A stretch of 13,501 nucleotides of DNA from a virus: the UHGV virus genome UHGV-1805255; one strand, 5' to 3'. The notes beneath the pieces are model-generated. The model was not told where the DNA came from. It did no database searches and saw only the letters and a list, made by a program, of their open reading frames with translations. The position numbers and the translations under genes are program-made. The first letter of the stretch is position 1. The number at the start of each line of letters is the position of its first letter. Positions 1-13,205 of the stretch are shown piece after piece.

Positions 1-1
1 C

Positions 2-157
2 CAGCAGAACATCATGAAAATAATGGGTACTGTAAAAGCGGTGCCAGTCGGCATACTCCGTGGATGACATCCCGGCAAGCATGGCACGCCAGTCGGGTCG
101 CCCCATCTCACGCGCCAGTTTCAGGGCAAAACTCAACTCACCGTCGAACGCTTTCCC
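2..157 (-). CDS. T: Tail assembly chaperone GT, T-frame extension reached by -1 frameshift from G (partial; continues past window start)
   Basis: Hand translation of the -1 frame downstream of the slippery site gives ...AFDGELSFALKLARRWGRPDWRAMLAGMSSTEYADWHRFYSTHYFHDVLL, open to position 2. This matches the lambda gpT segment as I recall it. Not in the ORF track because it has no start codon of its own. Confidence 0.8.
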
Positions 158-555
158 GCAGAAACAGGCTCTGCAGGCCCGGCGTCCTCTGCCTGTTCAG
201 GAGCATCATTCACCACAAACTCATACATACCGGACAGCCGGTACACCACGTTTTCAGCATGAGAAATTGCCTCCGTGGGCCAGGTGGTAAGCACTTCCTG
301 CTCAATCTGTTTAACGGCTTCATTCATGGAAGGCAGCTTTGTCTTCTGCGGATGGTTATGCCACAGGGACATCGCCACCACAAAAGCGCCGGTTCTGATG
401 GCGTCTTCCACAGTAAACTTCCGGTTGCTGTCTGACTCCGCCTGTTCTGCCTGTCGTTTCATCAGGGCGAGATGCTCAATACGCTGCAGGGCTGACAGTT
501 CAGAAAGCGTGACGGTCACACCGTTATGTTCAAATGATTCGGTTTTCAGGAACAT
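133..555 (-). CDS. G: Tail assembly chaperone G
   Basis: 140-aa ORF (MFLKTESFEHNGVTVTLSEL...SAGKRSTVS) near-identical to lambda gpG. ATG at 555, TGA stop at 133-135. Confidence 0.95.
   Translation of the reverse strand: MFLKTESFEHNGVTVTLSELSALQRIEHLALMKRQAEQAESDSNRKFTVEDAIRTGAFVVAMSLWHNHPQKTKLPSMNEAVKQIEQEVLTTWPTEAISHAENVVYRLSGMYEFVVNDAPEQAEDAGPAEPVSAGKRSTVS
151..157 (-). other. Programmed -1 ribosomal frameshift slippery heptamer G GGA AAG (G to GT)
   Basis: Plus strand 151-157 is ctttccc, so the minus strand reads GGGAAAG in the G frame as G-GGA-AAG, 6 codons before the G stop. The -1 frame stays open beyond this point. Confidence 0.85.
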
Positions 556-570
556 CGCTGACTCTCCGGA

Positions 571-1311
571 TTAACTGCCGGTGACGGTGATTTCTGCAAC
601 CGCAGCAAGTTCACCATTACCGGATACAACCGGAATGTTGACCTTGCCTGCAGCAACGCCGTTCACGGTGATGGTCATACCACTGACCGACACGGTGGCT
701 TTTGTTTTATCCGCAGACACCGCACGGAAGCTCTTGTCGGTTGCGCCCTCCGGCTGGAATGCCACGGTCAGCGTGATGCTCCGCCCTTTCACCACCGAAG
801 TGCTGGCAGGCGTCACGGTCATGCCGGTTGCCGCTGTTACCGTGCTGCGATCTTCTGCCATCGACGGACGTCCCACGTTGGTGACTTTCACCGTGCGGGT
901 GATCACTTCCTTCGCCGTCACCGCCTTACCGATACTGCTGACCCAGCCGCGGAACACATCGACCGTGCCGTTCGGGAAGCGGATTTTATAGGCACGGGTA
1001 TCCCCTTTATTAAACCACGCCAGCAGCGCCTGCTGCCCCTGCTCTCCGGGCATCCACGCCAGCGTGAAGATGGTATCTCCGGCAGATTTCTGCCCCTGCC
1101 CGGTCGCAGTCCAGTCCGCATTTTCATCATCGAGATAGCTGTCGTCATAGGACTCAGCGGTCAGTTCGCCGGGCGTCAGGTCTTTAACCTTTGCCAGACG
1201 CGACCAGTCATTGTCTGAAAGCGGGTTTGCATAAGGGTCGCCGCTCCCGTTATAAACCCACAGTGTGGTCCCGGCCCCTTTCACCGGTGCCAGAGGATTT
1301 GGTGTTGGCAT
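571..1311 (-). CDS. V: Major tail tube protein V with C-terminal Ig-like domain
   Basis: ORF 571..1341 matches lambda gpV from the internal ATG at 1311 ([20 protein letters not shown]...). A GAGGA RBS precedes that ATG. 246 aa, as in lambda. Confidence 0.95.
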
Positions 1312-1318
1312 ATCGTCC

Positions 1319-1714
1319 TCACATTTCATAGGTAATGACATAAGTCAGATCGGCTGAACTCCACAGGCCCGCATCATCGTCGCGCCGGTAGTCATAGCCG
1401 CTGGCCACCATACTGGTGATCAAATCTGACAGTGCCGGGATATCACTCATCACCGGATAAATCCGGGACTCCATCCACGCATCCAGCTCTGAATCCGGCA
1501 CCTGAGCAGGCAGGAAAACTTCAATATGCAGCTCTGCCTGCCAGGTATCGCTGTCCAGCTCTTCGCCCGTGTATTCAGCGCCAGTGAGATAAACGGCAAT
1601 TGCCGGAAAATCCGCCTCATCAAAAACAGCGGGGCGACCATCAAAAAGCGTCGCCCCGGTGTCATGCTTCTCCAGTGCATCCAGTACGGCTGCACGGAGT
1701 TCAGTATGTTTCAT
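1319..1714 (-). CDS. U: Tail terminator protein U
   Basis: 131-aa ORF ([18 protein letters not shown]...) matching lambda gpU. Its ATG overlaps the Z stop in an ATGA arrangement. Confidence 0.95.
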
Positions 1715-2286
1715 CGCTTTATCACAATCCTCAGTTGTTGTTTCAGCGCATAGCTCAGTTCTTTTGGCAGACGTTCTCGCCGGATACGGTTAACGTTCTC
1801 ATCAAAAGCCTGTTTCAGTGGGACCGCCATCGGAATTTTCACCACCTGAATGGGAAGACGATTACGCTTTTTCCTTCCCTTATCGTCAGTGCCCTTCGCA
1901 TACCGTGCTTCTGGCAGACGTTGCATAACATGCCAGCGTCCATTATTTAATCGCTGGATGAATGCCCGCTGATAACGATGCTGACCGGCTTTGAGTATGC
2001 TGTTCGGGCGATGACCAAGCATCCTGATCCCCAGCTTAATAGCAGGGAGATCACCTCGGTTAACGATAATTTTTGCATTCGGATTTCTGACCGTAGCTCG
2101 TTTCAGTCTGGATCGCTCTTTAACCAGTTTTCTCGGCACCCGGGTTTCACGGGCGACCTGAGACGAAGACTGATTAATCGCCGTTGCGGCCACGCGGTTA
2201 ATGGCCATTGCTGACGCACTAGGCACCGCCGTTTTGCTGATACGGCTGAGGTTTTCAACGGCCTGCTCAAGACCTTTTATGGCCAT
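1711..2286 (-). CDS. Z: Tail completion / minor tail protein Z
   Basis: 191-aa ORF (MAIKGLEQAVENLSRISKTAVP...LRIVIKR) with N- and C-terminal regions matching lambda gpZ as I recall it. A GGGGGG RBS precedes ATG 2286. Confidence 0.9.
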   Translation of the reverse strand: MAIKGLEQAVENLSRISKTAVPSASAMAINRVAATAINQSSSQVARETRVPRKLVKERSRLKRATVRNPNAKIIVNRGDLPAIKLGIRMLGHRPNSILKAGQHRYQRAFIQRLNNGRWHVMQRLPEARYAKGTDDKGRKKRNRLPIQVVKIPMAVPLKQAFDENVNRIRRERLPKELSYALKQQLRIVIKR

Positions 2287-2297
2287 ACACCCCCCTT

Positions 2298-2651
2298 TCA
2301 GCGACGACGGTTAACGGCAGGCGGTACGCCCCGTCCAAGCCAGAGATGACAGCTTCCGCCATCATCCGGCGTAACCCGATCTACCCAGAAGTTTTCCTCA
2401 CCGATGGTCAGCGTGTCTCCGCGCCGCAGCTGCCGCACATCATCAGTCCGGACAAACAGGGACGGGCTGGAGCCTTCAACGCGCACGCCCTGTCCGGCAT
2501 AGCTGATATTTTCAGGGTCATCAAAAACACCACGTATCACAGCACCGGACTGCTCACCGGATGTCATGGTGGCTGACGTTCCCATGTACCCGCGTATCGT
2601 TTCATCGGCGCGGGCAATAGCAGCATCGAACAGGTTATCGAAATCAGCCAC
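2298..2651 (-). CDS. FII: Head-tail joining protein FII
   Basis: 117-aa ORF (MADFDNLFDAAIARADETIRGY...) matching lambda gpFII. Start is GTG at 2651, preceded by a GGGAGG RBS at about 5 nt. Confidence 0.93.
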   Translation of the reverse strand: MADFDNLFDAAIARADETIRGYMGTSATMTSGEQSGAVIRGVFDDPENISYAGQGVRVEGSSPSLFVRTDDVRQLRRGDTLTIGEENFWVDRVTPDDGGSCHLWLGRGVPPAVNRRR

Positions 2652-2662
2652 AGCGCCTCCCG

Positions 2663-3049
2663 TTATTGCATTCTGGCCAGGCCACGCTCTGTCATTTCAG
2701 CTGCCACACCGGCAGAGACACGAAACGCCGTTCCCGGCAGCACAAATGCCACAGGTTCATCCCGCGTGGCGTGAAGTGCATCAGTATGCAGCGTCACCAG
2801 TGCCACAACCGTGACCAGATCAGCCGTATCAGTCACGGTATCCGGCTGCGCTGATACCACCTCATTTTCATGTCCGGTCAGCGCATTTTCCGGGCTGATA
2901 GGGGTATCCTGATCGGCAGTGTCATCAAGCTCCTCTTCCAGCTCTGCCACACGGAGCGCCAGTTCTTCTTTCGTTCCCGTCAAACTGACATCGCGGTTCA
3001 GTTGCTCACCCAGCTCCTGAAGACGGGCAATCAGTTCATCTTTCGTCAT
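2663..3049 (-). CDS. FI: Head assembly / DNA packaging accessory protein FI
   Basis: ORF 2663..3088 matches lambda gpFI from the internal ATG at 3049 (MTKDELIARLQELGEQLNRDVSLTGTKEELALRVAEL...). A GGAGGAG RBS lies immediately upstream. The upstream part of the track ORF overlaps an RNA hairpin and is not coding. Confidence 0.92.
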   Translation of the reverse strand: MTKDELIARLQELGEQLNRDVSLTGTKEELALRVAELEEELDDTADQDTPISPENALTGHENEVVSAQPDTVTDTADLVTVVALVTLHTDALHATRDEPVAFVLPGTAFRVSAGVAAEMTERGLARMQ

Positions 3050-3070
3050 GGACTCCTCCACAGAGAAACA

Positions 3071-3088
3071 ATGGCCCCGAAGGGCCAT
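3071..3088 (-). other. Stable RNA stem-loop with cUUCGg tetraloop immediately after the E stop codon
   Basis: Plus strand atggccc-cgaa-gggccat has perfect 7-bp arms. On the mRNA this is AUGGCCC-UUCG-GGGCCAU, 2 nt after the E UAA and upstream of the FI RBS. Confidence 0.7.
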
Positions 3089-3090
3089 GA

Positions 3091-4116
3091 TTACGCCAGT
3101 TGTACAGACACGAACTCATCAGGGTCAGCCAGCAGCATCAGCGGTGCTGACTGAATCATGGTGAACTCACGCGCCGGATCGCCGGATGTCTTCCAGTTTT
3201 TCGGATAACGGGGAGACGCATTAATACCCTCACTCAATGCATCCGCATCCTGAATGCAGCCATAGGTGCGCAGACCGCGTGCATGAGTGTTACCCAGCAC
3301 CATCGTGTTGTCCGGCAGGAAGTTCTTTTTGACGCCGTTTTCCACGTACTGTCCGGAATACACGACGATGGCCACATCGCCATACATTCCCTTATAAGAC
3401 ACCGCTTTGCCCAGGTCTTTCACCGCTGTCTCCAGCTCGGAATGAGAGCCGCGACGGGTATCCAGCTTATCCTTGACGGCCTTGAAGGAACGGAACAGCG
3501 CCCAGCCTTTCGGATCAAACACGATGATATTCACCACACCGCTGGCGTTCAGCGCGTAGGCTTCGATATCGTCGGTCGGGTCATACGTGGACTTGTCACG
3601 CTTGCTCCACGCCGTGCCGCCGGACTGCGTGATGTTGTTGGCCGCACTGCGGCCCATATCCACCTCAACCGGATCGAAGGCTTCACCGGTCATGGTGTAT
3701 TTGCCCTTGAGCACGGCAGAAACTGCCTGCATCTCTTCCACCTGGGCAATGGCCAGCTCTTCGTCACGCATGTTCTGCATGATGATGCGACGGCGACGGT
3801 AAGCCGGGTCCGCCAGATTCTGCGGATCTTCATCCGGCAGGCGACGCAGGGTCATCTGCGGATTCACTTCATGCTTCGGCTTGACATATCCCGGCGTAAA
3901 TTCAGAGGTGGAGCCGCCACGGGAACGGATAACCTCACCGGAAACAATCGGCGAAACGTACAGCGCCATGTTTACCAGTCCCGGAATTTGTGAGAGATAG
4001 ACTTTCTCCGTAGTGAAGGGATAGCTCTCACGGAAAAAGAGACGCAGAAACAGCGGATCAAACTTAAATTTCTGCTCATTTGCCGCCAGCAGCTGGGCGG
4101 TTGTGTACATCGACAT
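3091..4116 (-). CDS. E: Major capsid protein E
   Basis: ORF 3091..4143 matches lambda gpE (341 aa) from the ATG at 4116 (MSMYTTAQLLAANEQKFKFDPLFLRLFFRESYPFTTEK...). TAA stop at 3091-3093. Confidence 0.97.
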   Translation of the reverse strand: MSMYTTAQLLAANEQKFKFDPLFLRLFFRESYPFTTEKVYLSQIPGLVNMALYVSPIVSGEVIRSRGGSTSEFTPGYVKPKHEVNPQMTLRRLPDEDPQNLADPAYRRRRIIMQNMRDEELAIAQVEEMQAVSAVLKGKYTMTGEAFDPVEVDMGRSAANNITQSGGTAWSKRDKSTYDPTDDIEAYALNASGVVNIIVFDPKGWALFRSFKAVKDKLDTRRGSHSELETAVKDLGKAVSYKGMYGDVAIVVYSGQYVENGVKKNFLPDNTMVLGNTHARGLRTYGCIQDADALSEGINASPRYPKNWKTSGDPAREFTMIQSAPLMLLADPDEFVSVQLA

Positions 4117-4125
4117 AAAAAAATC

Positions 4126-4154
4126 CCGTAAAAAAAGCCGCACAGGCGGCCTTT
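4126..4154 (-). terminator. Terminator-like GC hairpin plus U-tract between D and E (possible attenuator or mRNA stability element inside the late operon)
   Basis: The mRNA reads AAAGGCCGC-CUGU-GCGGCUUUU (9-bp stem with one G-U pair) followed by UUUACGGGAUUUUUUU directly before the E AUG. Read from sequence; function is inferred. Confidence 0.5.
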
Positions 4155-4171
4155 AGTGATGAAGGGTAAGC

Positions 4172-4504
4172 TTAAACGATGCTGATTGCCGTTCCGGCAA
4201 ACGCGGTCCGTTTTTTCGTCTCGTCGCTGGCAGCCTCCGGCCAGAGCACATCCTCATAACGGAACGTGCCGGACTTGTAGAACGTCAGCGTGGTGCTGGT
4301 CTGGTCAGCAGCAACCGCCAGAATGCCAACGGCAGCACCGTCGGTGGTGCCATCCCACGCAACCAGCTTACGGGTGGAGGTGTCCAGCATCAGCGGGGTC
4401 ATTGCAGGCGCTTTCGCACTCAATCCGCCGGGCGCGGTTGCCGTATGTGCCGGGTCACTGTTGCCCAGCGGCTGGTAATGGGTAAAGGTTTCTTTGCTCG
4501 TCAT
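4172..4504 (-). CDS. D: Head decoration protein D
   Basis: ORF 4172..4510 matches lambda gpD (110 aa) from the ATG at 4504 ([41 protein letters not shown]...). An AAGGGA RBS lies upstream. Confidence 0.95.
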
Positions 4505-4513
4505 AAACATCCC

Positions 4514-5119
4514 TTACACTGGTGTGTTCAGCAAATCGTTAACGGCATCAGATGCCGGGTTACCTGCAGCCAGCGGTGCCGGTGCCCCCTGCATCAGACG
4601 ATCCAGCGCAGTGTCACTGCGCGCCTGTGCACTCTGTGGTGCAACTGCCAGAATGCGGCGGGCCGTTTCCACGGTCATACCGGGGGTTTCGGCCAGCACG
4701 CGAGCCTGTTCTTCGCGTCCGTGAGCCTCCTCACAGTTGAGGATCCCCATAATGCGGCTGTTTTCTGCCGCAACCGCAGCGGTGATCTGCGCGTTCACGT
4801 CCGGCTGCGCCGCGCTGGCGTTTTCGCCCTCCGTCGCTGGCACCACGTCAGTAACGTCAGCCTGCGAAGCAGTGGCTGAAACAGTTGTTGATTGAGTCTC
4901 TTTGGTCATTCGCCCTCCTGAGAGACGGGATTTACGTGCATCCAGTGCATCACGCATAACGGTGATCGCATCGGTGCTGTTGACAAGTTCATCAGCCAGT
5001 CCGGCATCAATGGCCTCCTGACCGCTGTACACTGCAGCCTCGGTATCCAGCACAGCCTGCACGGACAGGCCGGTATATGCCGACACCTTCTGCGCAAACA
5101 TCCGGCGGGTTGCATCCAT
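4514..5119 (-). CDS. Nu3: Scaffolding protein Nu3 (in-frame internal start within C)
   Basis: In-frame ATG at 5119 (MDATRRMFAQKV...) gives 201 codons sharing the C stop, matching the lambda Nu3 arrangement. The call rests on lambda precedent. Confidence 0.75.
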   Translation of the reverse strand: MDATRRMFAQKVSAYTGLSVQAVLDTEAAVYSGQEAIDAGLADELVNSTDAITVMRDALDARKSRLSGGRMTKETQSTTVSATASQADVTDVVPATEGENASAAQPDVNAQITAAVAAENSRIMGILNCEEAHGREEQARVLAETPGMTVETARRILAVAPQSAQARSDTALDRLMQGAPAPLAAGNPASDAVNDLLNTPV

Positions 5120-5813
5120 CCGGGACTGCAGTGTCTCCCGGACGTCATCCGGAAGATGGCTGTAGGGATTGCCATCCACCTTATGGCTGCCGCTGTAAAT
5201 CAGCGTGATTTCCACGCCCTGTTTCTCCAGCGCAGCACCGTAATTACTGTGAGCCATCATGACGCCGATGGAGCCTGTCCGGGCGGTCTGCGTGACCAGA
5301 CGCCGGGAAGCGGCACTGGCAAGCAGCTGACCTGCACTGCAGTTCATGTCGTTGGCCAGCGCCCATACCGGTTTTATGTCACGCACACGGGCGATGATGT
5401 CAGCGCAGTCAAATGCCCCCGCCACCATCCCGCCGGGCGTGTCCATATCGAGCAGAATGCCGTCCACCATCGGATCGCTGGCAGCCTGTTGCAGACGGGC
5501 GATAATGCCGTTGTAACCGGTCATCCCCGAGTACGGCTTCAGCGCCCGCGTCCGGCTGACCAGCGTGCCGGAAACCGGCAGCACGGCGATGCCATTCATG
5601 ACCTGATAACTGCGGGCCTGTCGTGGTCCGTTATCATCACCGGATAACGCCAGCGTCGCGGGTGCCTCCGGGGCAGTCAGGCTGTCACCGGACACCGCAT
5701 CTGTCAGGCGGCTGATCCCAAGCTGGCCTGCAAGCGCACAAAAGAAAACCCGCGCATAGGCGGGTTCAAGCATCAGCGGCTCATTAAAGGCCATGCTGGC
5801 AATATGCGGGAGA

Positions 5814-5833
<20 letters not shown>
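4514..5833 (-). CDS. C: Head maturation protease / scaffold-related protein C
   Basis: ORF 4514..5968 matches lambda gpC (439 aa) from the GTG at 5833 (V/MTAELRNLPHIASMAFNEPLMLEPAYARVFF...). A GGAGGAG RBS lies upstream, and the start overlaps the 3' end of B by 20 nt as in lambda. ClpP/SppA-like peptidase fold is established for this family. Confidence 0.93.
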
Positions 5834-9514
<3,681 letters not shown>

Positions 9515-9540
<26 letters not shown>

Positions 9541-10060
9541 TCAGCAACCCCGGTATCAGTTCATCCAGCGCGGCTGCTTTGTTCATGGCTTTGATAATAT
9601 CCCGTTTCAGGAAATCAATATGCCGGTTATCCAGCTCAGGAAAACGTCGCTGCACCGACAGAGGAATACCGTCGAGAATACTGGATATTTCCCTTGCTAT
9701 ACGCGACAGCACGAAAGTACAGAATGCGGTTTCCACCACTTCAGCCGATTCTTTGGCATTTTTCAGTTCCTGCGCCGTCGCCTGAGCACGAGTCAGGCGA
9801 TGGCGCTCAAATTCAAGTGTTCCGGGGTGAAGATCTGCCTCGCTGGCCAGCCGCAGTTCTTCAACCTCCCGGCGCAGCTTTTCGTTCTCAATTTCAGCAT
9901 CCCTTTCGGCATACCATTTTATGACGGCGGCAGAATCATAAAGCACCTCATTACCCTTACCACCACCCCGCAGAACGGGCATTCCCTGCTCCTGCCAGTT
10001 CTGAATGGTACGGATACTCGCGCCGAAAATGTCAGCCAGCTGCTTTTTGTTGACTTCCAT
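9515..10060 (-). CDS. Nu1: Terminase small subunit Nu1
   Basis: 181-aa ORF (MEVNKKQLADIFGASIRTIQNWQEQGMPVLRGGGKGNEVLYD...) matching lambda gpNu1, with the N-terminal winged-HTH region. ATG at 10060, directly downstream of cosB. Confidence 0.97.
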
Positions 10061-10084: not shown

Positions 10085-10199
10085 AGAAAGGAAACGACAG
10101 GGGCCAAAAAGCCCGTTTTCAGCACCTGTCGTTTCCTTTCTTTTCAGGGGGTATTTTAAATAAAAACATTAAGTTACGGCGAAGAAGAACGGAAACGCC
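10085..10199. promoter_or_regulatory. cosB: terminase (Nu1) binding R-elements R1, R2, R3
   Basis: A perfect 17-bp inverted pair, agaaaggaaacgacagg (10085-10101) and cctgtcgtttcctttct (10125-10141), plus a third related element gaacggaaacgcc (10187-10199). These match the lambda CGTTTCC-type R sites between cosN and Nu1. Confidence 0.85.
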
Positions 10200-10237: not shown

Positions 10238-10249
10238 AGGTCGCCGCCC
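10238..10249. other. cosN: 12-nt cohesive-end sequence (GGGCGGCGACCT on the minus strand)
   Basis: Plus strand aggtcgccgccc at 10238-10249 is the reverse complement of the lambda cohesive end. The 49 nt on the Nu1 side are identical to the lambda left end as I recall it. Confidence 0.9.
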
Positions 10250-10310
10250 CGTAACGGCCCGGATCGCCGGAAAGGACCCGTAAAAATGATAATGGTTATC
10301 ATTTTCAATG

Positions 10311-10498
10311 TAGTCCGGTTTCTTCCACCATCGCACCGGACAGGCGACTATGAGGGGACAACGCCGCGCTCCGTTAACGCGGTAAACCCCGGTGTGTATC
10401 GTTTTTGATTATCCCCGCACACTCGCGCAGAGGAGTCTCCCTGTCGGGCTGCGGTCTCTGTTAATGAGGGAATACAGCGACGATACGGCGCATGATGT
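10311..10498. repeat. Copy 1 of a ~190-bp imperfect direct repeat (cos-proximal copy)
   Basis: By-eye alignment with 12086-12285: ttcttccacc...cagg...atgagggaca...gcggtaaa...ccggtgtg.atcgtttttgattat..ccgcacactcgcgcagaggagt...gtcgggct.cggtc...gttaatg.gg.aatac.gcgacgat. Roughly 85-90% identity over the core. Confidence 0.8.
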
Positions 10499-10524
10499 GT
10501 CAGGCTTGAATACATTTATCCGTT

Positions 10525-10550
10525 AAAAGGGATATCAGTTAAGTTATCCC
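10525..10550 (-). terminator. Weak terminator-like hairpin 3' of cargo gene B
   Basis: The mRNA reads GGGAUA-ACUUAACUGA-UAUCCC followed by UUUUAACGG. The 6-bp stem is AU-rich and the U-tract short, so this is a weak call. Confidence 0.25.
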
Positions 10551-10607
10551 GTGTAGGGTATAAGCCATTATCAAAGCCACTCAGTAGCGAATGGCTTTTG
10601 TAATGGA

Positions 10608-11057
10608 CTATTTAATTAGTGATGCTGCGTATTCGATTAGATATAACTTAGGTGCCAACCAGATTTTTAACCATGTCATATTGGTTACTACAGCAATAAT
10701 AAAACTTACCCACAGAACAAAAACTGCTGCTAATGGTAAGATAAGAAAACTAATCTCACCGTTACTTTCCCAAATCATGGTCGGTTTGTATTTAGGCTTC
10801 CCTTTTTCCCATGACCATCCTTCATTATCGAACTTACCAATTTCAACTTTTTGGTACTGTTTCTTCATAAACCAAATAACCAGCGGGATTGTTGAAATGG
10901 CTATTAATGTTTTAATCAGGCTATCAACCATATTCCATACCAGCAACTGATGAACAACATCCGGAATCTGAGCCTGACTGAATGCAATGGCGGAATCAAT
11001 TCCATCGCTGGCCTTCTTCAATAAATCAACAAGAATTTTATTTGCTTCTTCTTGCAT
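10608..11057 (-). CDS. Cargo gene B: small (149 aa) predicted two-pass membrane protein, function unknown
   Basis: ATG at 11057 preceded by AGGA at about 7 nt; the track ORF begins upstream at a TTG. Two hydrophobic segments (SLIKTLIAISTIPLVIWFM and ISFLILPLAAVFVLWVSFIIAVVT) flank a Lys-rich loop. About 37% GC in a sampled stretch. No homolog recognised. Confidence 0.7.
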   Translation of the reverse strand: MQEEANKILVDLLKKASDGIDSAIAFSQAQIPDVVHQLLVWNMVDSLIKTLIAISTIPLVIWFMKKQYQKVEIGKFDNEGWSWEKGKPKYKPTMIWESNGEISFLILPLAAVFVLWVSFIIAVVTNMTWLKIWLAPKLYLIEYAASLIK

Positions 11058-11181
11058 GTTTATATCCTGTAAGTTGTAAGCCTGTTCGAGAAAAATAAAC
11101 AACTACGAGAGACAGAAAAAAATATCTCAGGCTCTCTTTCTATAAGCTTTTAGTTGAGGATGTTCTGCAAAACAAAACTGG

Positions 11182-12042
11182 TTAGTTATGTAACTGCTTC
11201 CGGAATACAACAGCCGACGAGCTACAACGTAAAATTCGTTTGATTGTGGCAGTTGAGGAAACAGACTTGCATTTCTCAACATCATCAATAATGACCACAT
11301 CCGGTACAGGAATGACGCGGGTATGCAATGTTTTTGCACTAATAACATCACAGCCATTCAGTGGTCGAATATCTGCATCTTCAGGCACTACCAGAAGCAC
11401 ACGTTTTTCCGGTGCAGAAAAGCCAGCAGCAAGAGTGCGTGACAATAAAGTCATTCCGCTGCGTGGCTTCATACAAATTTCAGAAATATGATTCTTTTCG
11501 TCCAAATGATGCTGGACATCATTTTTATCATCACTCAACAACTCTGCTGTTAATACAATCCCTGCTGTCTCAGATTTCCAGGAAATGCTGATATCCTGAT
11601 CATCTGCATCAACATCATATTTCATCGAGTAAGGACTAAAGCTACGTCCAACGAACGCATCATTTACCAGTACACGCCCACCCTGTCTGACCTGAAAGTC
11701 AACGCGCCCGGAAAGCTGATTTGCTGTTACAAGCAATGCCTTTTTTCTTTTTGTTTTATTGCTCATTGCCACCAACTGTTCAGCCATCTCTCTTGTCACA
11801 CTACCAGAAACTCTTCCTTGCATTTTCACAGAAAATTTTCTGGATGTAGTAGCATCGACATTAAAAAATCTGGATGTAATCAGGCAGTTATTAACAATTG
11901 GCATCAGCTCACTTACGATTGTAAAAAATTCCCGGTAAAGCTCATTTTGCTTTTCAACACACAGCTTTCCACAATCGTCCAGCTTACGCTCAAGAGCACT
12001 TAACCTTTCCATTATTGAATTAATTTTTTGCAACTCTTTCAT
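11182..12042 (-). CDS. Cargo gene A: 286-aa protein of unknown function, predicted soluble, N-terminal coiled-coil-like segment
   Basis: ATG at 12042 preceded by AGGAGG at 5 nt (MKELQKINSIMERLSALERKLDD...). The track ORF extends to a TTG at 12303 through the GC-rich repeat, with an R/C/S/P-rich translation that I do not consider coding. About 38% GC in sampled stretches. TAA stop at 11182. Confidence 0.75.
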   Translation of the reverse strand: MKELQKINSIMERLSALERKLDDCGKLCVEKQNELYREFFTIVSELMPIVNNCLITSRFFNVDATTSRKFSVKMQGRVSGSVTREMAEQLVAMSNKTKRKKALLVTANQLSGRVDFQVRQGGRVLVNDAFVGRSFSPYSMKYDVDADDQDISISWKSETAGIVLTAELLSDDKNDVQHHLDEKNHISEICMKPRSGMTLLSRTLAAGFSAPEKRVLLVVPEDADIRPLNGCDVISAKTLHTRVIPVPDVVIIDDVEKCKSVSSTATIKRILRCSSSAVVFRKQLHN

Positions 12043-12065: not shown

Positions 12066-12083
12066 GTGCGACCACGGTCGCAC
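12066..12083. promoter_or_regulatory. Palindrome gtgcgacc-ac-ggtcgcac (copy 1), candidate operator / protein-binding site upstream of cargo gene A
   Basis: Perfect 8-bp inverted arms around a 2-bp centre, 24-41 bp upstream of the gene A ATG and directly abutting repeat copy 2. Confidence 0.5.
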
Positions 12084-12085
12084 GC

Positions 12086-12285
12086 TCCTGAATACATGCC
12101 CTGTTTCTTCCACCCTCGCACAGGACTGGCGAGCATGAGGGACAAACCCGCGAATCATTAGTGCGGTAAAAACCCGGTGTGCATCGTTTTTGATTATTTC
12201 CGCACACTCGCGCAGAGGAGTTCCCCGTCGGGCTACGGTCATGGTTAATGCGGAAATACGGCGACGATGCAGCGCGGTATTTAAT
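12086..12285. repeat. Copy 2 of the ~190-bp imperfect direct repeat (upstream of the cargo cassette)
   Basis: Aligns with 10311-10498 (see copy 1). It is bracketed on both sides by the 16-18-bp palindrome. Confidence 0.8.
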
Positions 12286-12302
12286 GTGCGACCACGGTCG
12301 CA
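12286..12302. promoter_or_regulatory. Palindrome tgcgacc-ac-ggtcgca (copy 2)
   Basis: Same core as 12066-12083 with 7-bp perfect arms. Centre-to-centre spacing is 220 bp, about 21 helical turns. Confidence 0.5.
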
Positions 12303-12322
12303 AACGAGAAACAAAGAGATTT

Positions 12323-12634
12323 TTATGCTACAGAGGAACAAGCTGGCGGGTAATTCAGCGTAGTGAATACCGGCATCTCCATCTTGTATGCGTAATGATA
12401 CTCAGCAGTTGCTCCAGCAGACGCTTTCCAGCCAGGAAGCATCAAAATAGCATCAGCACAACGAAGCATTGCAAAGCAAATATCCATGTATTCACGTTGT
12501 GTCAAACCATTAGGCAAAGTGGCTGGATTCAAGACAGAGTGACCATGTCGTGACAAACGATCTGCCTCTTTATTAAAGGCGTCACGATTAAAGTTCTCAT
12601 ATCCCGTCATTGGCCCGGCAATATAAATTTTCAT
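12323..12634 (-). CDS. DUF4406 / nucleoside 2-deoxyribosyltransferase-like small protein
   Basis: 103-aa ORF with ATG at 12634 (MKIYIAGPMTGYENFNRDAF...LMLPGWKASAGATAEYHYAYKMEMPVF). The N-terminal IYIAGPxTG and the LPGW-x-S-x-GA-x-x-E motifs fit my recollection of the DUF4406 family. Family assignment is from memory. Confidence 0.6.
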   Translation of the reverse strand: MKIYIAGPMTGYENFNRDAFNKEADRLSRHGHSVLNPATLPNGLTQREYMDICFAMLRCADAILMLPGWKASAGATAEYHYAYKMEMPVFTTLNYPPACSSVA

Positions 12635-12675: not shown

Positions 12676-13113
12676 TTAATTCAGGCATTGCGTCTTGATG
12701 TATTCCTGCAAGTAGTTAACCTGCGCAGTTATCCTGTCGATCCCACTTCGGAGACGGTAATAATTGAGTTCAGCATCTGCTGTAAGTCTTGGGCTTTCTC
12801 CATCGCCCATGCTGCTGGCTCCGGTCGTTGACTTTGCACAGGTGGCGGCGACTTGCAGGCGCTTACGCCCAGCAGAAACATCAGCACGGAGGCTTTCGAT
12901 AGTCGCGTTAGCATCAGCAAGCTCCTTTGTATATCTGGCATCGAGTTCTGCTACGTCACGTTGACGCTTCTGCATATCAGCGATTGTGGATGTGGCTTTA
13001 TCGCGCTGCTCTTTGTAGGAGATGGCGTTATCACGGTAATGATTAACCGCCCATGACAGGCAGACGATGATGCAGATAACCAGAGCGGAGATAATCGCGG
13101 TTAACCGACTCAT
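12676..13113 (-). CDS. Rz: i-spanin Rz (inner-membrane spanin subunit)
   Basis: ORF 12676..13149 matches lambda-type Rz from the ATG at 13113 ([34 protein letters not shown]...). N-terminal TM segment, coiled-coil-rich periplasmic part, and an embedded Rz1 frame. Confidence 0.9.
12729..12914 (-). CDS. Rz1: o-spanin Rz1 (outer-membrane lipoprotein, embedded in Rz in +1 frame)
   Basis: Embedded ORF with ATG at 12914: [36 protein letters not shown]... Signal peptide with lipobox-like VSAC followed by a Pro-rich segment, as in lambda Rz1. An alternative upstream ATG at 12941 is possible. Confidence 0.75.
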
Positions 13114-13205
13114 GACATCAACACCCCAACGGCCAGAAACCACGGCCACGCATCGTTGCCATTAAATGCGAGCAACGCTGCCATGAAAAAGAAAATCATG
13201 CTCAT
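13110..13205 (-). CDS. Putative 31-aa hydrophobic micro-protein between R and Rz
   Basis: Hand translation gives [31 protein letters not shown]. Its ATG overlaps the R stop (ATGA) and its TGA overlaps the Rz ATG (ATGA). No RBS is evident, and it is below the size cutoff of the ORF track. Confidence 0.35.

Follow-up and report, generated by a model that had tools for sequence, protein, structure and literature searches.

The Late-Region Locus and Its Features

The window, a stretch of 13,501 nucleotides from the UHGV virus genome UHGV-1805255, was found to be the late region of a phage of lambda morphology, encoded on the minus strand. In the order of late transcription it carries the genes for endolysin, Rz/Rz1 and a DUF4406 protein, two genes termed A and B throughout this paper, cos, the genes for Nu1 and the terminase large subunit, and finally the head and tail genes. 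The analysis concerns the cassette formed by A and B together with the elements around it. This cassette is best placed with the phage moron cargo of uncharacterised genes and is not a recognisable defence system. Positions are those of the window, and TM stands for transmembrane. The features of the slot are as follows:

12323-12634, minus strand: DUF4406 gene (nucleoside 2-deoxyribosyltransferase-like), 103 aa; Pfam PF14359 with E 3.7e-34; phrog_355
12286-12303, no strand assigned: N15-type SopB centromere palindrome, 17/18 matches, GTGCGACCACGGTCGCAa; N15 IR1/IR4 sequence
12089-12284, minus strand: putative structured RNA motif, copy 1; covariance model R1, 203 bits, E 5e-66; between the palindromes
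12066-12083, no strand assigned: N15-type SopB centromere palindrome, perfect 18-mer GTGCGACCACGGTCGCAC; 24 nt 5' of the A ATG
11182-12042, minus strand: gene A, 286 aa; ATG at 12042, stop at 11182
11058-11181, minus strand: A-B spacer, AT-rich, 34.7% GC
10608-11057, minus strand: gene B, 149 aa, two TM helices; ATG at 11057, stop at 10608
10305-10500, minus strand: putative structured RNA motif, copy 2; R1, 236 bits, E 4e-77; at its usual place just 5' of cos
10238-10249, minus strand: cosN cohesive-end sequence GGGCGGCGACCT

The letters GGGCGGCGACCT at 10238-10249 were read from the sequence, and we take them to be a lambda-type cohesive end. This cosN is the right border of the cargo slot. 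The conserved, fixed left border is the DUF4406 gene, which corresponds to gene 57 of N15 (annotated as DUF4406). A first-pass annotation, made from the sequence alone, had described A and B as two co-oriented open reading frames (ORFs). Their coordinates and sizes, the ribosome binding site (RBS) of A and the number of TM helices in B were all found correct. The location between Rz and cos was given correctly too, but the DUF4406 gene intervening between Rz and A went unmentioned. The direct repeat of ~190 nt and the identity of the palindromes had likewise been overlooked.

The AT-richness noted at first glance became clearly visible in whole-block counts. The block 10608-12042 has a GC content of 39.0% versus 56.5% over 1-9540 (head and tail genes), with 40.9% for A, 36.4% for B and 34.7% for the A-B spacer. 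The GC content at third codon positions is 0.36 in the block versus 0.62-0.66 for terminase and portal. The DUF4406 gene (12323-12634) has 44% GC. The further claim that the block is dispensable cargo, acquired horizontally and inserted in a variable slot, agreed with the slot contents, which differ among lambda, N15, 21 and others. N15 carries dcm and gp59, lambda bor and lambdap78/79, and phage 21 a TonB-C gene, and other phages have nothing there. Compared to the window, the slot is empty or differently filled in the 55989 prophage, strain 4/0, lambda, phage 21 and N15. As in the moron definition of Hendrix and Juhala, patchily occurring extra genes are found between conserved neighbours, and their composition is distinct.

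IS5-family insertions were observed in NZ_CP029741.1 (4078-5058) and in NZ_CP011416.1, placed after B and before the RNA copy on the cos side, showing that the slot also gathers insertion sequences.

Gene A, a Lineage-Restricted Orphan

Gene A lies within a longer ORF starting with TTG, and an AGGAGG is located 5 nt 5' of its ATG at 12042. Its product is soluble with a pI of 8.9 and has zero hydrophobic TM segments. Over its full length it matched the profile of phrog_2571 (E 8.8e-161), a family of unknown function, and it gave zero matches in Pfam, NCBIfam or PADLOC. Using a word-indexed search of 5.8 billion proteins, relatives were found in 15 clusters, all from Escherichia/Shigella and with at least 79% identity, plus fragments. 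Scanning 1.84 billion representatives exhaustively with HMMER yielded one full-length cluster and fragments, but no full-length relative outside A's own family. Among 5426 complete E. coli genomes, A was detected in 35 (21 chromosomal, 14 plasmid records). It was full length in 28 of these; in the remaining 7 it breaks off at nucleotide 585 or 353. Judged by this distribution, A is an orphan restricted to the Escherichia/Shigella lineage, decaying in part of its range.

Two deletion derivatives were observed. In NZ_CP019258.1 (compared with window 10630-11458) the 3' third of A is gone together with B, and in NZ_CP032265.1 (compared with window 10302-11690) only the first 353 nt of A are left, fused directly to cos-proximal sequence.

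The AlphaFold2 (AF2) model of A was poor, with a predicted local distance difference test (pLDDT) score of 52.9. It suggested a helical hairpin at the N terminus, a middle part rich in beta structure and, at the C-terminal end, a small alpha/beta domain. This last domain may be RecA-like, with the Walker motifs missing. The only match of A among PDB sequence profiles was the cystovirus P4 NTPase, with an insignificant E of 0.26. A may have some nucleic-acid- or protein-binding role. A relationship with N15 gp59 was rejected, the two proteins being unrelated.

These data also bear on the question of whether the cassette has a function at all. A could be an ORF that arose de novo or the remnant of a gene in decay, with B as a copy of a pL-operon gene that travels along with it. 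The orphan distribution of A, its deletion derivatives and the low AF2 confidence agree with such a cassette without current function, and the AT-rich composition makes long ORFs less surprising. We nevertheless consider it unlikely. Intact copies of A, 96-99% identical in nucleotide sequence, are kept in 28 genomes of several lineages and replicon types, and A has a strong RBS. The exact A protein of the window was found on 69 public contigs, named "hypothetical" on each of them, and variants of A differ by an in-frame 6-codon indel, not by frameshifts. Furthermore, B is strongly conserved over at least 1605 clusters, with invariant residues.

Gene B and Its Widespread Family

Two hydrophobic segments were found in B, centred near residues 52-56 and 108-123, and the AF2 model (pLDDT 70) has matching helices. 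Lysine is abundant in the loop that connects the two TM segments. Throughout the family, invariant N- and C-terminal helices flank two TM segments, and the invariant residues are present. B matched the profile of phrog_3054 over its full length (E 1.3e-58, function unknown). The family comprised 488 clusters in a single-sequence search and at least 1605 in a profile search. None of the family clusters has a Pfam domain, and the best name among them was "phage transmembrane protein". B together with 18 family members gave zero Pfam matches, B gave nothing against NCBIfam, PADLOC and PDB sequence profiles, and its model found nothing with an E below 0.8 in BFVD using Foldseek. The first-pass annotation had recognised neither protein, and this held: PHROGs of unknown function were the only matches for A and B, there was no match in Pfam, NCBIfam or PADLOC, and the profile and structure searches it had suggested revealed no characterised homologue of either.

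Using tblastn, B was detected in 177 phage records, including P22-like phages, Vibrio phages, Shigella and Salmonella phages of ~71-72 kb and the virulent Justusliebigvirus. In CUS-3 the homologue is located between ral and cIII. In prophages of Salmonella, E. coli and E. albertii, B is the first gene after N, by sieB and co-oriented with pL. This set includes the closest alleles outside the cassette, with ~90% amino-acid identity, and B at 74-90% identity is common without A. At the inspected pL-operon loci of B there was no A-like neighbour. By its gene neighbourhoods, the B family is usually a stand-alone first gene after N in the early-left operon.

B shares with SieB and T4 Imm that it is a small inner-membrane phage protein, and its homologues lie beside sieB and ral in the pL operon. 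The occurrence of the family in virulent phages is a further similarity to T4 Imm. Unlike this general resemblance might suggest, B has no homology with SieB. With low confidence, a membrane-level accessory function, for example superinfection exclusion or an injection block, would be the most likely role of B. As the family comprises at least 1605 clusters from temperate and virulent phages, one experiment would annotate thousands of genes.

Two assignments of B to known classes were rejected. Relatives have an upstream holin already and B homologues sit in early operons, which speaks against a holin. SieB (PF14163) was dismissed by the lack of a Pfam match and by an hhalign probability of 0.1% against lambda SieB.

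Centromere Palindromes and the Link to N15-Like Phage-Plasmids

The palindrome GTGCGACCACGGTCGCA(C) was found at 12066-12083 and 12286-12303; two matches occurred in 0 of 200 shuffles. In N15 the centromere sites IR1-IR4, which are bound by SopB, consist of the 18-bp palindrome GTGCGACCNNGGTCGCAC (Table 4, PMC7205306). The sequence at 12066-12083 equals that of N15 IR1/IR4 and, in addition, was rated a weak hairpin of terminator type. The operator reading proposed earlier was not supported: both palindromes exist, and their sequence is that of N15 SopB centromere sites. The palindrome 24 nt 5' of the A ATG was present in all carriers checked (L389, L392, L140), chromosomal prophages included. 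In the chromosomal prophage of CP148507 the order was DUF4406-IR-A-B-RNA-ylcI-Nu1, and in that of AR_0085 it was Rz-iss-RNA-IR-A-B-IS5-RNA-ylcI. Best DNA matches to the region, with 97-98% identity, were plasmid records of 46-62 kb, for example NZ_CP101226.1 (L140) and NZ_CP014491.1 (L001). The plasmid relative checked in full, pEC21Z144-46K, encodes a protelomerase, SopA/ParB and a CyRepA1 replication protein and has five palindromes.

Because the palindrome before A is the N15 centromere site, N15-like linear phage-plasmids were identified as the closest relatives. The probable source of the window is such a phage-plasmid, equipped with head, tail and cos genes of lambda type, or else a prophage that had undergone recombination with a phage-plasmid of this kind. 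The window stops short of any sopAB genes; its nearest relatives encode SopA/ParB and protelomerase. From the comparison of carriers and plasmid relatives, IR, A, spacer and B behave as one transferable unit with a phage-plasmid signature. At the homologous place the order in N15 is DUF4406, dcm, IR4, gp59, cos, so an identical palindrome stands there just 5' of the last gene before cos and 3' of the DUF4406 gene. Unlike the window, which has two palindromes 220 bp apart, N15 carries a dcm methylase gene in the slot and lacks the RNA motif. The relatives of the window share with N15 the protelomerase, SopAB and dispersed sites (five).

The two palindromes tightly flank RNA copy 1 with a spacing of 220 bp, and this arrangement looks like an insertion that duplicated the site. 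The window lineage exceeds CP148507 by 220 bp, which are an RNA copy and the duplicated IR.

The relationship with telomere phages brings up a second known type of gene pair. Lysogens of Klebsiella telomere (N15-like) phages express toxins, each paired with an immunity protein of the inner membrane and encoded by the phage; the telocin locus is located between repA and the protelomerase gene, and the immunity protein ImmA has 4 TM helices (PMC12042878). By analogy, A might be a secreted or released antibacterial toxin and B its inner-membrane immunity protein. The relatives of the window are telomere phages, and the cassette similarly is cargo of N15-like phage-plasmids in which a soluble protein is followed by a small membrane protein. 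Still, we regard this as very improbable. The cassette stands before cos rather than in the repA-protelomerase interval, B has 2 TM helices versus 4 in ImmA, and folds and domains are different; no bacteriocin or lysin domain (Pfam) or fold was detected. Moreover, virulent phages and early operons are among the many places where B occurs without A.

The SopB site 24 nt 5' of A, found in chromosomal prophages as well, bears concrete witness to genes having moved between phage-plasmids and lambdoid prophages in the chromosome. Whether partition proteins control the expression of cargo could be tested on it, too.

A Flanking Repeat With an Apparent RNA Structure

The flanking RNA motif is the most novel item of the locus. 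Its copies at 10305-10500 and 12089-12284 are direct repeats and bracket the cassette. Copy 2 showed 100% identity over 204 nt to the copy of the E. coli 55989 prophage, which is located directly after the lysis gene of that prophage. The motif was found in 1912 of the 5426 E. coli genomes (median 2 copies) as well as in ~400 phage records. Its usual place is directly after the lysis gene or bor/iss and before whichever terminase type follows. In lambda (NC_001416) it lies at 46860-47041, between bor and lambdap78, and it also occurs in 21, 434, ES18/SPN3UB and Stx phages with unrelated terminases.

Using RNAalifold, eight helices were obtained for the motif. Base-pair covariation was significant in 42 sequences, clustered at 95% identity. 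A total of 96.5% of cells were paired, compared to 35-60% in slid controls. Changes on both sides were found for 14 pairs (5.6 +/- 1.6 in shuffles) and 43 cells (8.8 +/- 3.2 in shuffles), and all five covariation measures were exceeded in 0 of 500 shuffles. G:U pairs are abundant, one of them being invariant, which is consistent only with the late-sense strand. Support for the structure comes only from covariation, because the energy of single-sequence folding was unremarkable and no better than in shuffles (z -0.7 to -1.0).

Searching Rfam 15, no match was obtained at gathering score for the whole window and none at E up to 10 for either copy; a literature search for the literal motif sequence gave no match. 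We tentatively propose, at somewhat less than even odds, that the motif may represent an undescribed class of structured RNA on the lambdoid late transcript, acting in cis (processing, stability or translation of packaging/morphogenesis mRNA), as a partner of a host or phage protein or as homology for cargo exchange, and that B would be the founding example of a widespread early membrane family with an exclusion-type role. An apparently covarying RNA structure in lambda itself which is absent from Rfam would be of real interest as an unannotated RNA in the best-studied phage.

Several known categories were considered for the motif and rejected. Single-base indels between copies exclude a protein-coding sequence, and the YlcI/YnfO annotation merely abuts the repeat. 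The motif is neither lambda PreS/LPR1 nor LPR2 nor 6S. It is not PasB, which has 83 nt and a published probe that mismatches, and the repeat core sequences are absent from the supplements of that paper. Another Pas small RNA was dismissed as well, the other members mapping near Q and the holin gene.

A and B as Probable Moron Cargo Rather Than a Dedicated Pair

We favour the reading that the cassette is moron-type accessory cargo in the slot between lysis/DUF4406 and cos of a lambda-morphology phage nearest to the N15-like linear plasmid-prophages, and that its two genes form a mosaic and evolve separately instead of constituting a dedicated two-component system. We assign a probability of roughly 0.55 to this reading. 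Like the lambdoid morons (bor and lambdap78/79 of lambda, the TonB-C gene of 21, iss), A and B occupy the lysis-to-cos slot and are patchy, AT-rich and dispensable. Unlike these, they are unrelated to Bor/Iss and are accompanied by a plasmid centromere site, and the promoter and terminator scan found none convincing.

The separate evolution of the two genes became visible in their distribution and divergence. In the 5426 complete E. coli genomes B was present in 215 versus 35 for A. In the carriers CP148507 (L389) and NZ_CP029741.1 (L392), A and the spacer showed 96-99% nucleotide identity and B 89-93%; the spacer travels with A (97.6-99% identity). Because B occurs without A and the divergence is discordant, A and B are not an obligate co-varying module. 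A lack of co-variation had been named beforehand as refuting the paired reading, and it was observed. The proposed check by co-occurrence across genomes gave a divided answer: B follows every inspected full-length A, but is mostly found without it. In the genomes compared, the A-B link thus appears to be one-way, with A always accompanied by B and B mostly without A. The lower identity of B would fit a separate exchange of B alleles with other copies, a relaxed constraint on B being the alternative, and suggests that recombination exchanged B alleles with those of pL operons in prophages resident in the same cell.

The distribution data also serve to judge a comparison with lambda RexA/RexB, in which the soluble protein A would be the sensor that activates B as a depolarising membrane effector of exclusion or abortive infection. 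The order and sizes in this temperate phage are similar: RexA has 279 aa and RexB 144 aa, compared to 286 aa for the soluble A and 149 aa for the membrane protein B. In each full-length A locus examined, A is followed by B, and the A-B spacer is conserved jointly with A. Homology was not observed: hhalign gave probabilities of 2.4% for A versus RexA and 0.1% for B versus RexB, and there were zero matches in Pfam and in PADLOC (PADLOC-DB v2, with no family at E up to 1 for A, B or the DUF4406 protein). RexB has 4 TM helices, B only 2. The rex genes are located in the immunity region next to cI, in contrast to the late lysis-to-cos region here, and B is found alone elsewhere, with alleles at 74-90% identity in pL operons and homologues in virulent phages. 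Between carriers B is more diverged than A, and A is truncated in 7 of 35 genomes. A Rex-type pair is improbable in the light of these differences.

Several observations weigh against moron cargo of two independent genes. B was found after A at every full-length A locus inspected (L001, L140, L389-L391, L392), and it was kept with A in at least 25 of 28 full-length-A genomes, as judged by a B identity of at least 90%. A may depend on B, though B does not depend on A. The pLDDT scores of the models were poor for both A (53) and B (70), which makes the domain reading of A weak. Comparison with RexB, SieB and PADLOC revealed no homology of B to exclusion proteins. Finally, the promoter scan, with 3 sigma-70-like sites versus 5.4 +/- 2.3 expected by chance and none 5' of A, was limited to the sigma-70 consensus.

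For the cassette as moron cargo we propose the following course. The mobile unit would consist of the SopB centromere palindrome, gene A, the spacer and gene B. A phage-plasmid is its most likely place of origin, from which it would have recombined into chromosomal lambdoid prophages; for this step the conserved RNA element could plausibly have served as portable homology for cargo exchange. A and B would most likely be expressed on the Q-antiterminated late transcript, because both are co-oriented with the late operon and the scan revealed no convincing promoter for them. SopB bound 24 nt 5' of A could modulate expression while the phage is a plasmid-prophage. B would act at the inner membrane in exclusion. 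A role in defence or exclusion is possible, mainly for B.

From the "two-gene defence module" of the first-pass annotation the accessory cargo was retained, but not the paired system nor a likeness to PADLOC systems, RexA/RexB or SieB. As a lead to a defence system the cassette is weaker than it first appeared, consisting of one orphan and one gene for a stand-alone membrane protein, neither linked to known systems.

Further Features of the Late Region

Outside the cassette, the following features were located:

12676-13149, minus strand: Rz, with Rz1 nested inside
10573-10598, minus strand: weak hairpin 3' of B with a 7-bp stem AAAGCCA/TGGCTTT and without U tract, read from the sequence
9515-10060, minus strand: Nu1, next after cos
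7615-9540, minus strand: terminase large subunit

Downstream of the terminase gene follow portal, protease, decoration and capsid genes and then the tail genes. The hairpin downstream of B, already noted in the first inspection, does exist (10573-10598, 7-bp stem, no U tract). Terminators at the cassette were represented by weak hairpins only, all without U tract. At 10565-10606, over the hairpin after B, only microRNA (miRNA) models matched, and these matches are meaningless.

Between cos and Nu1, at 10085-10141, an inverted repeat of 26 nt with 88% complementarity and a 5-nt loop was observed, which also draws spurious matches to miRNA models. It presumably corresponds to the lambda-like hairpin region of cosB and the Nu1 leader.

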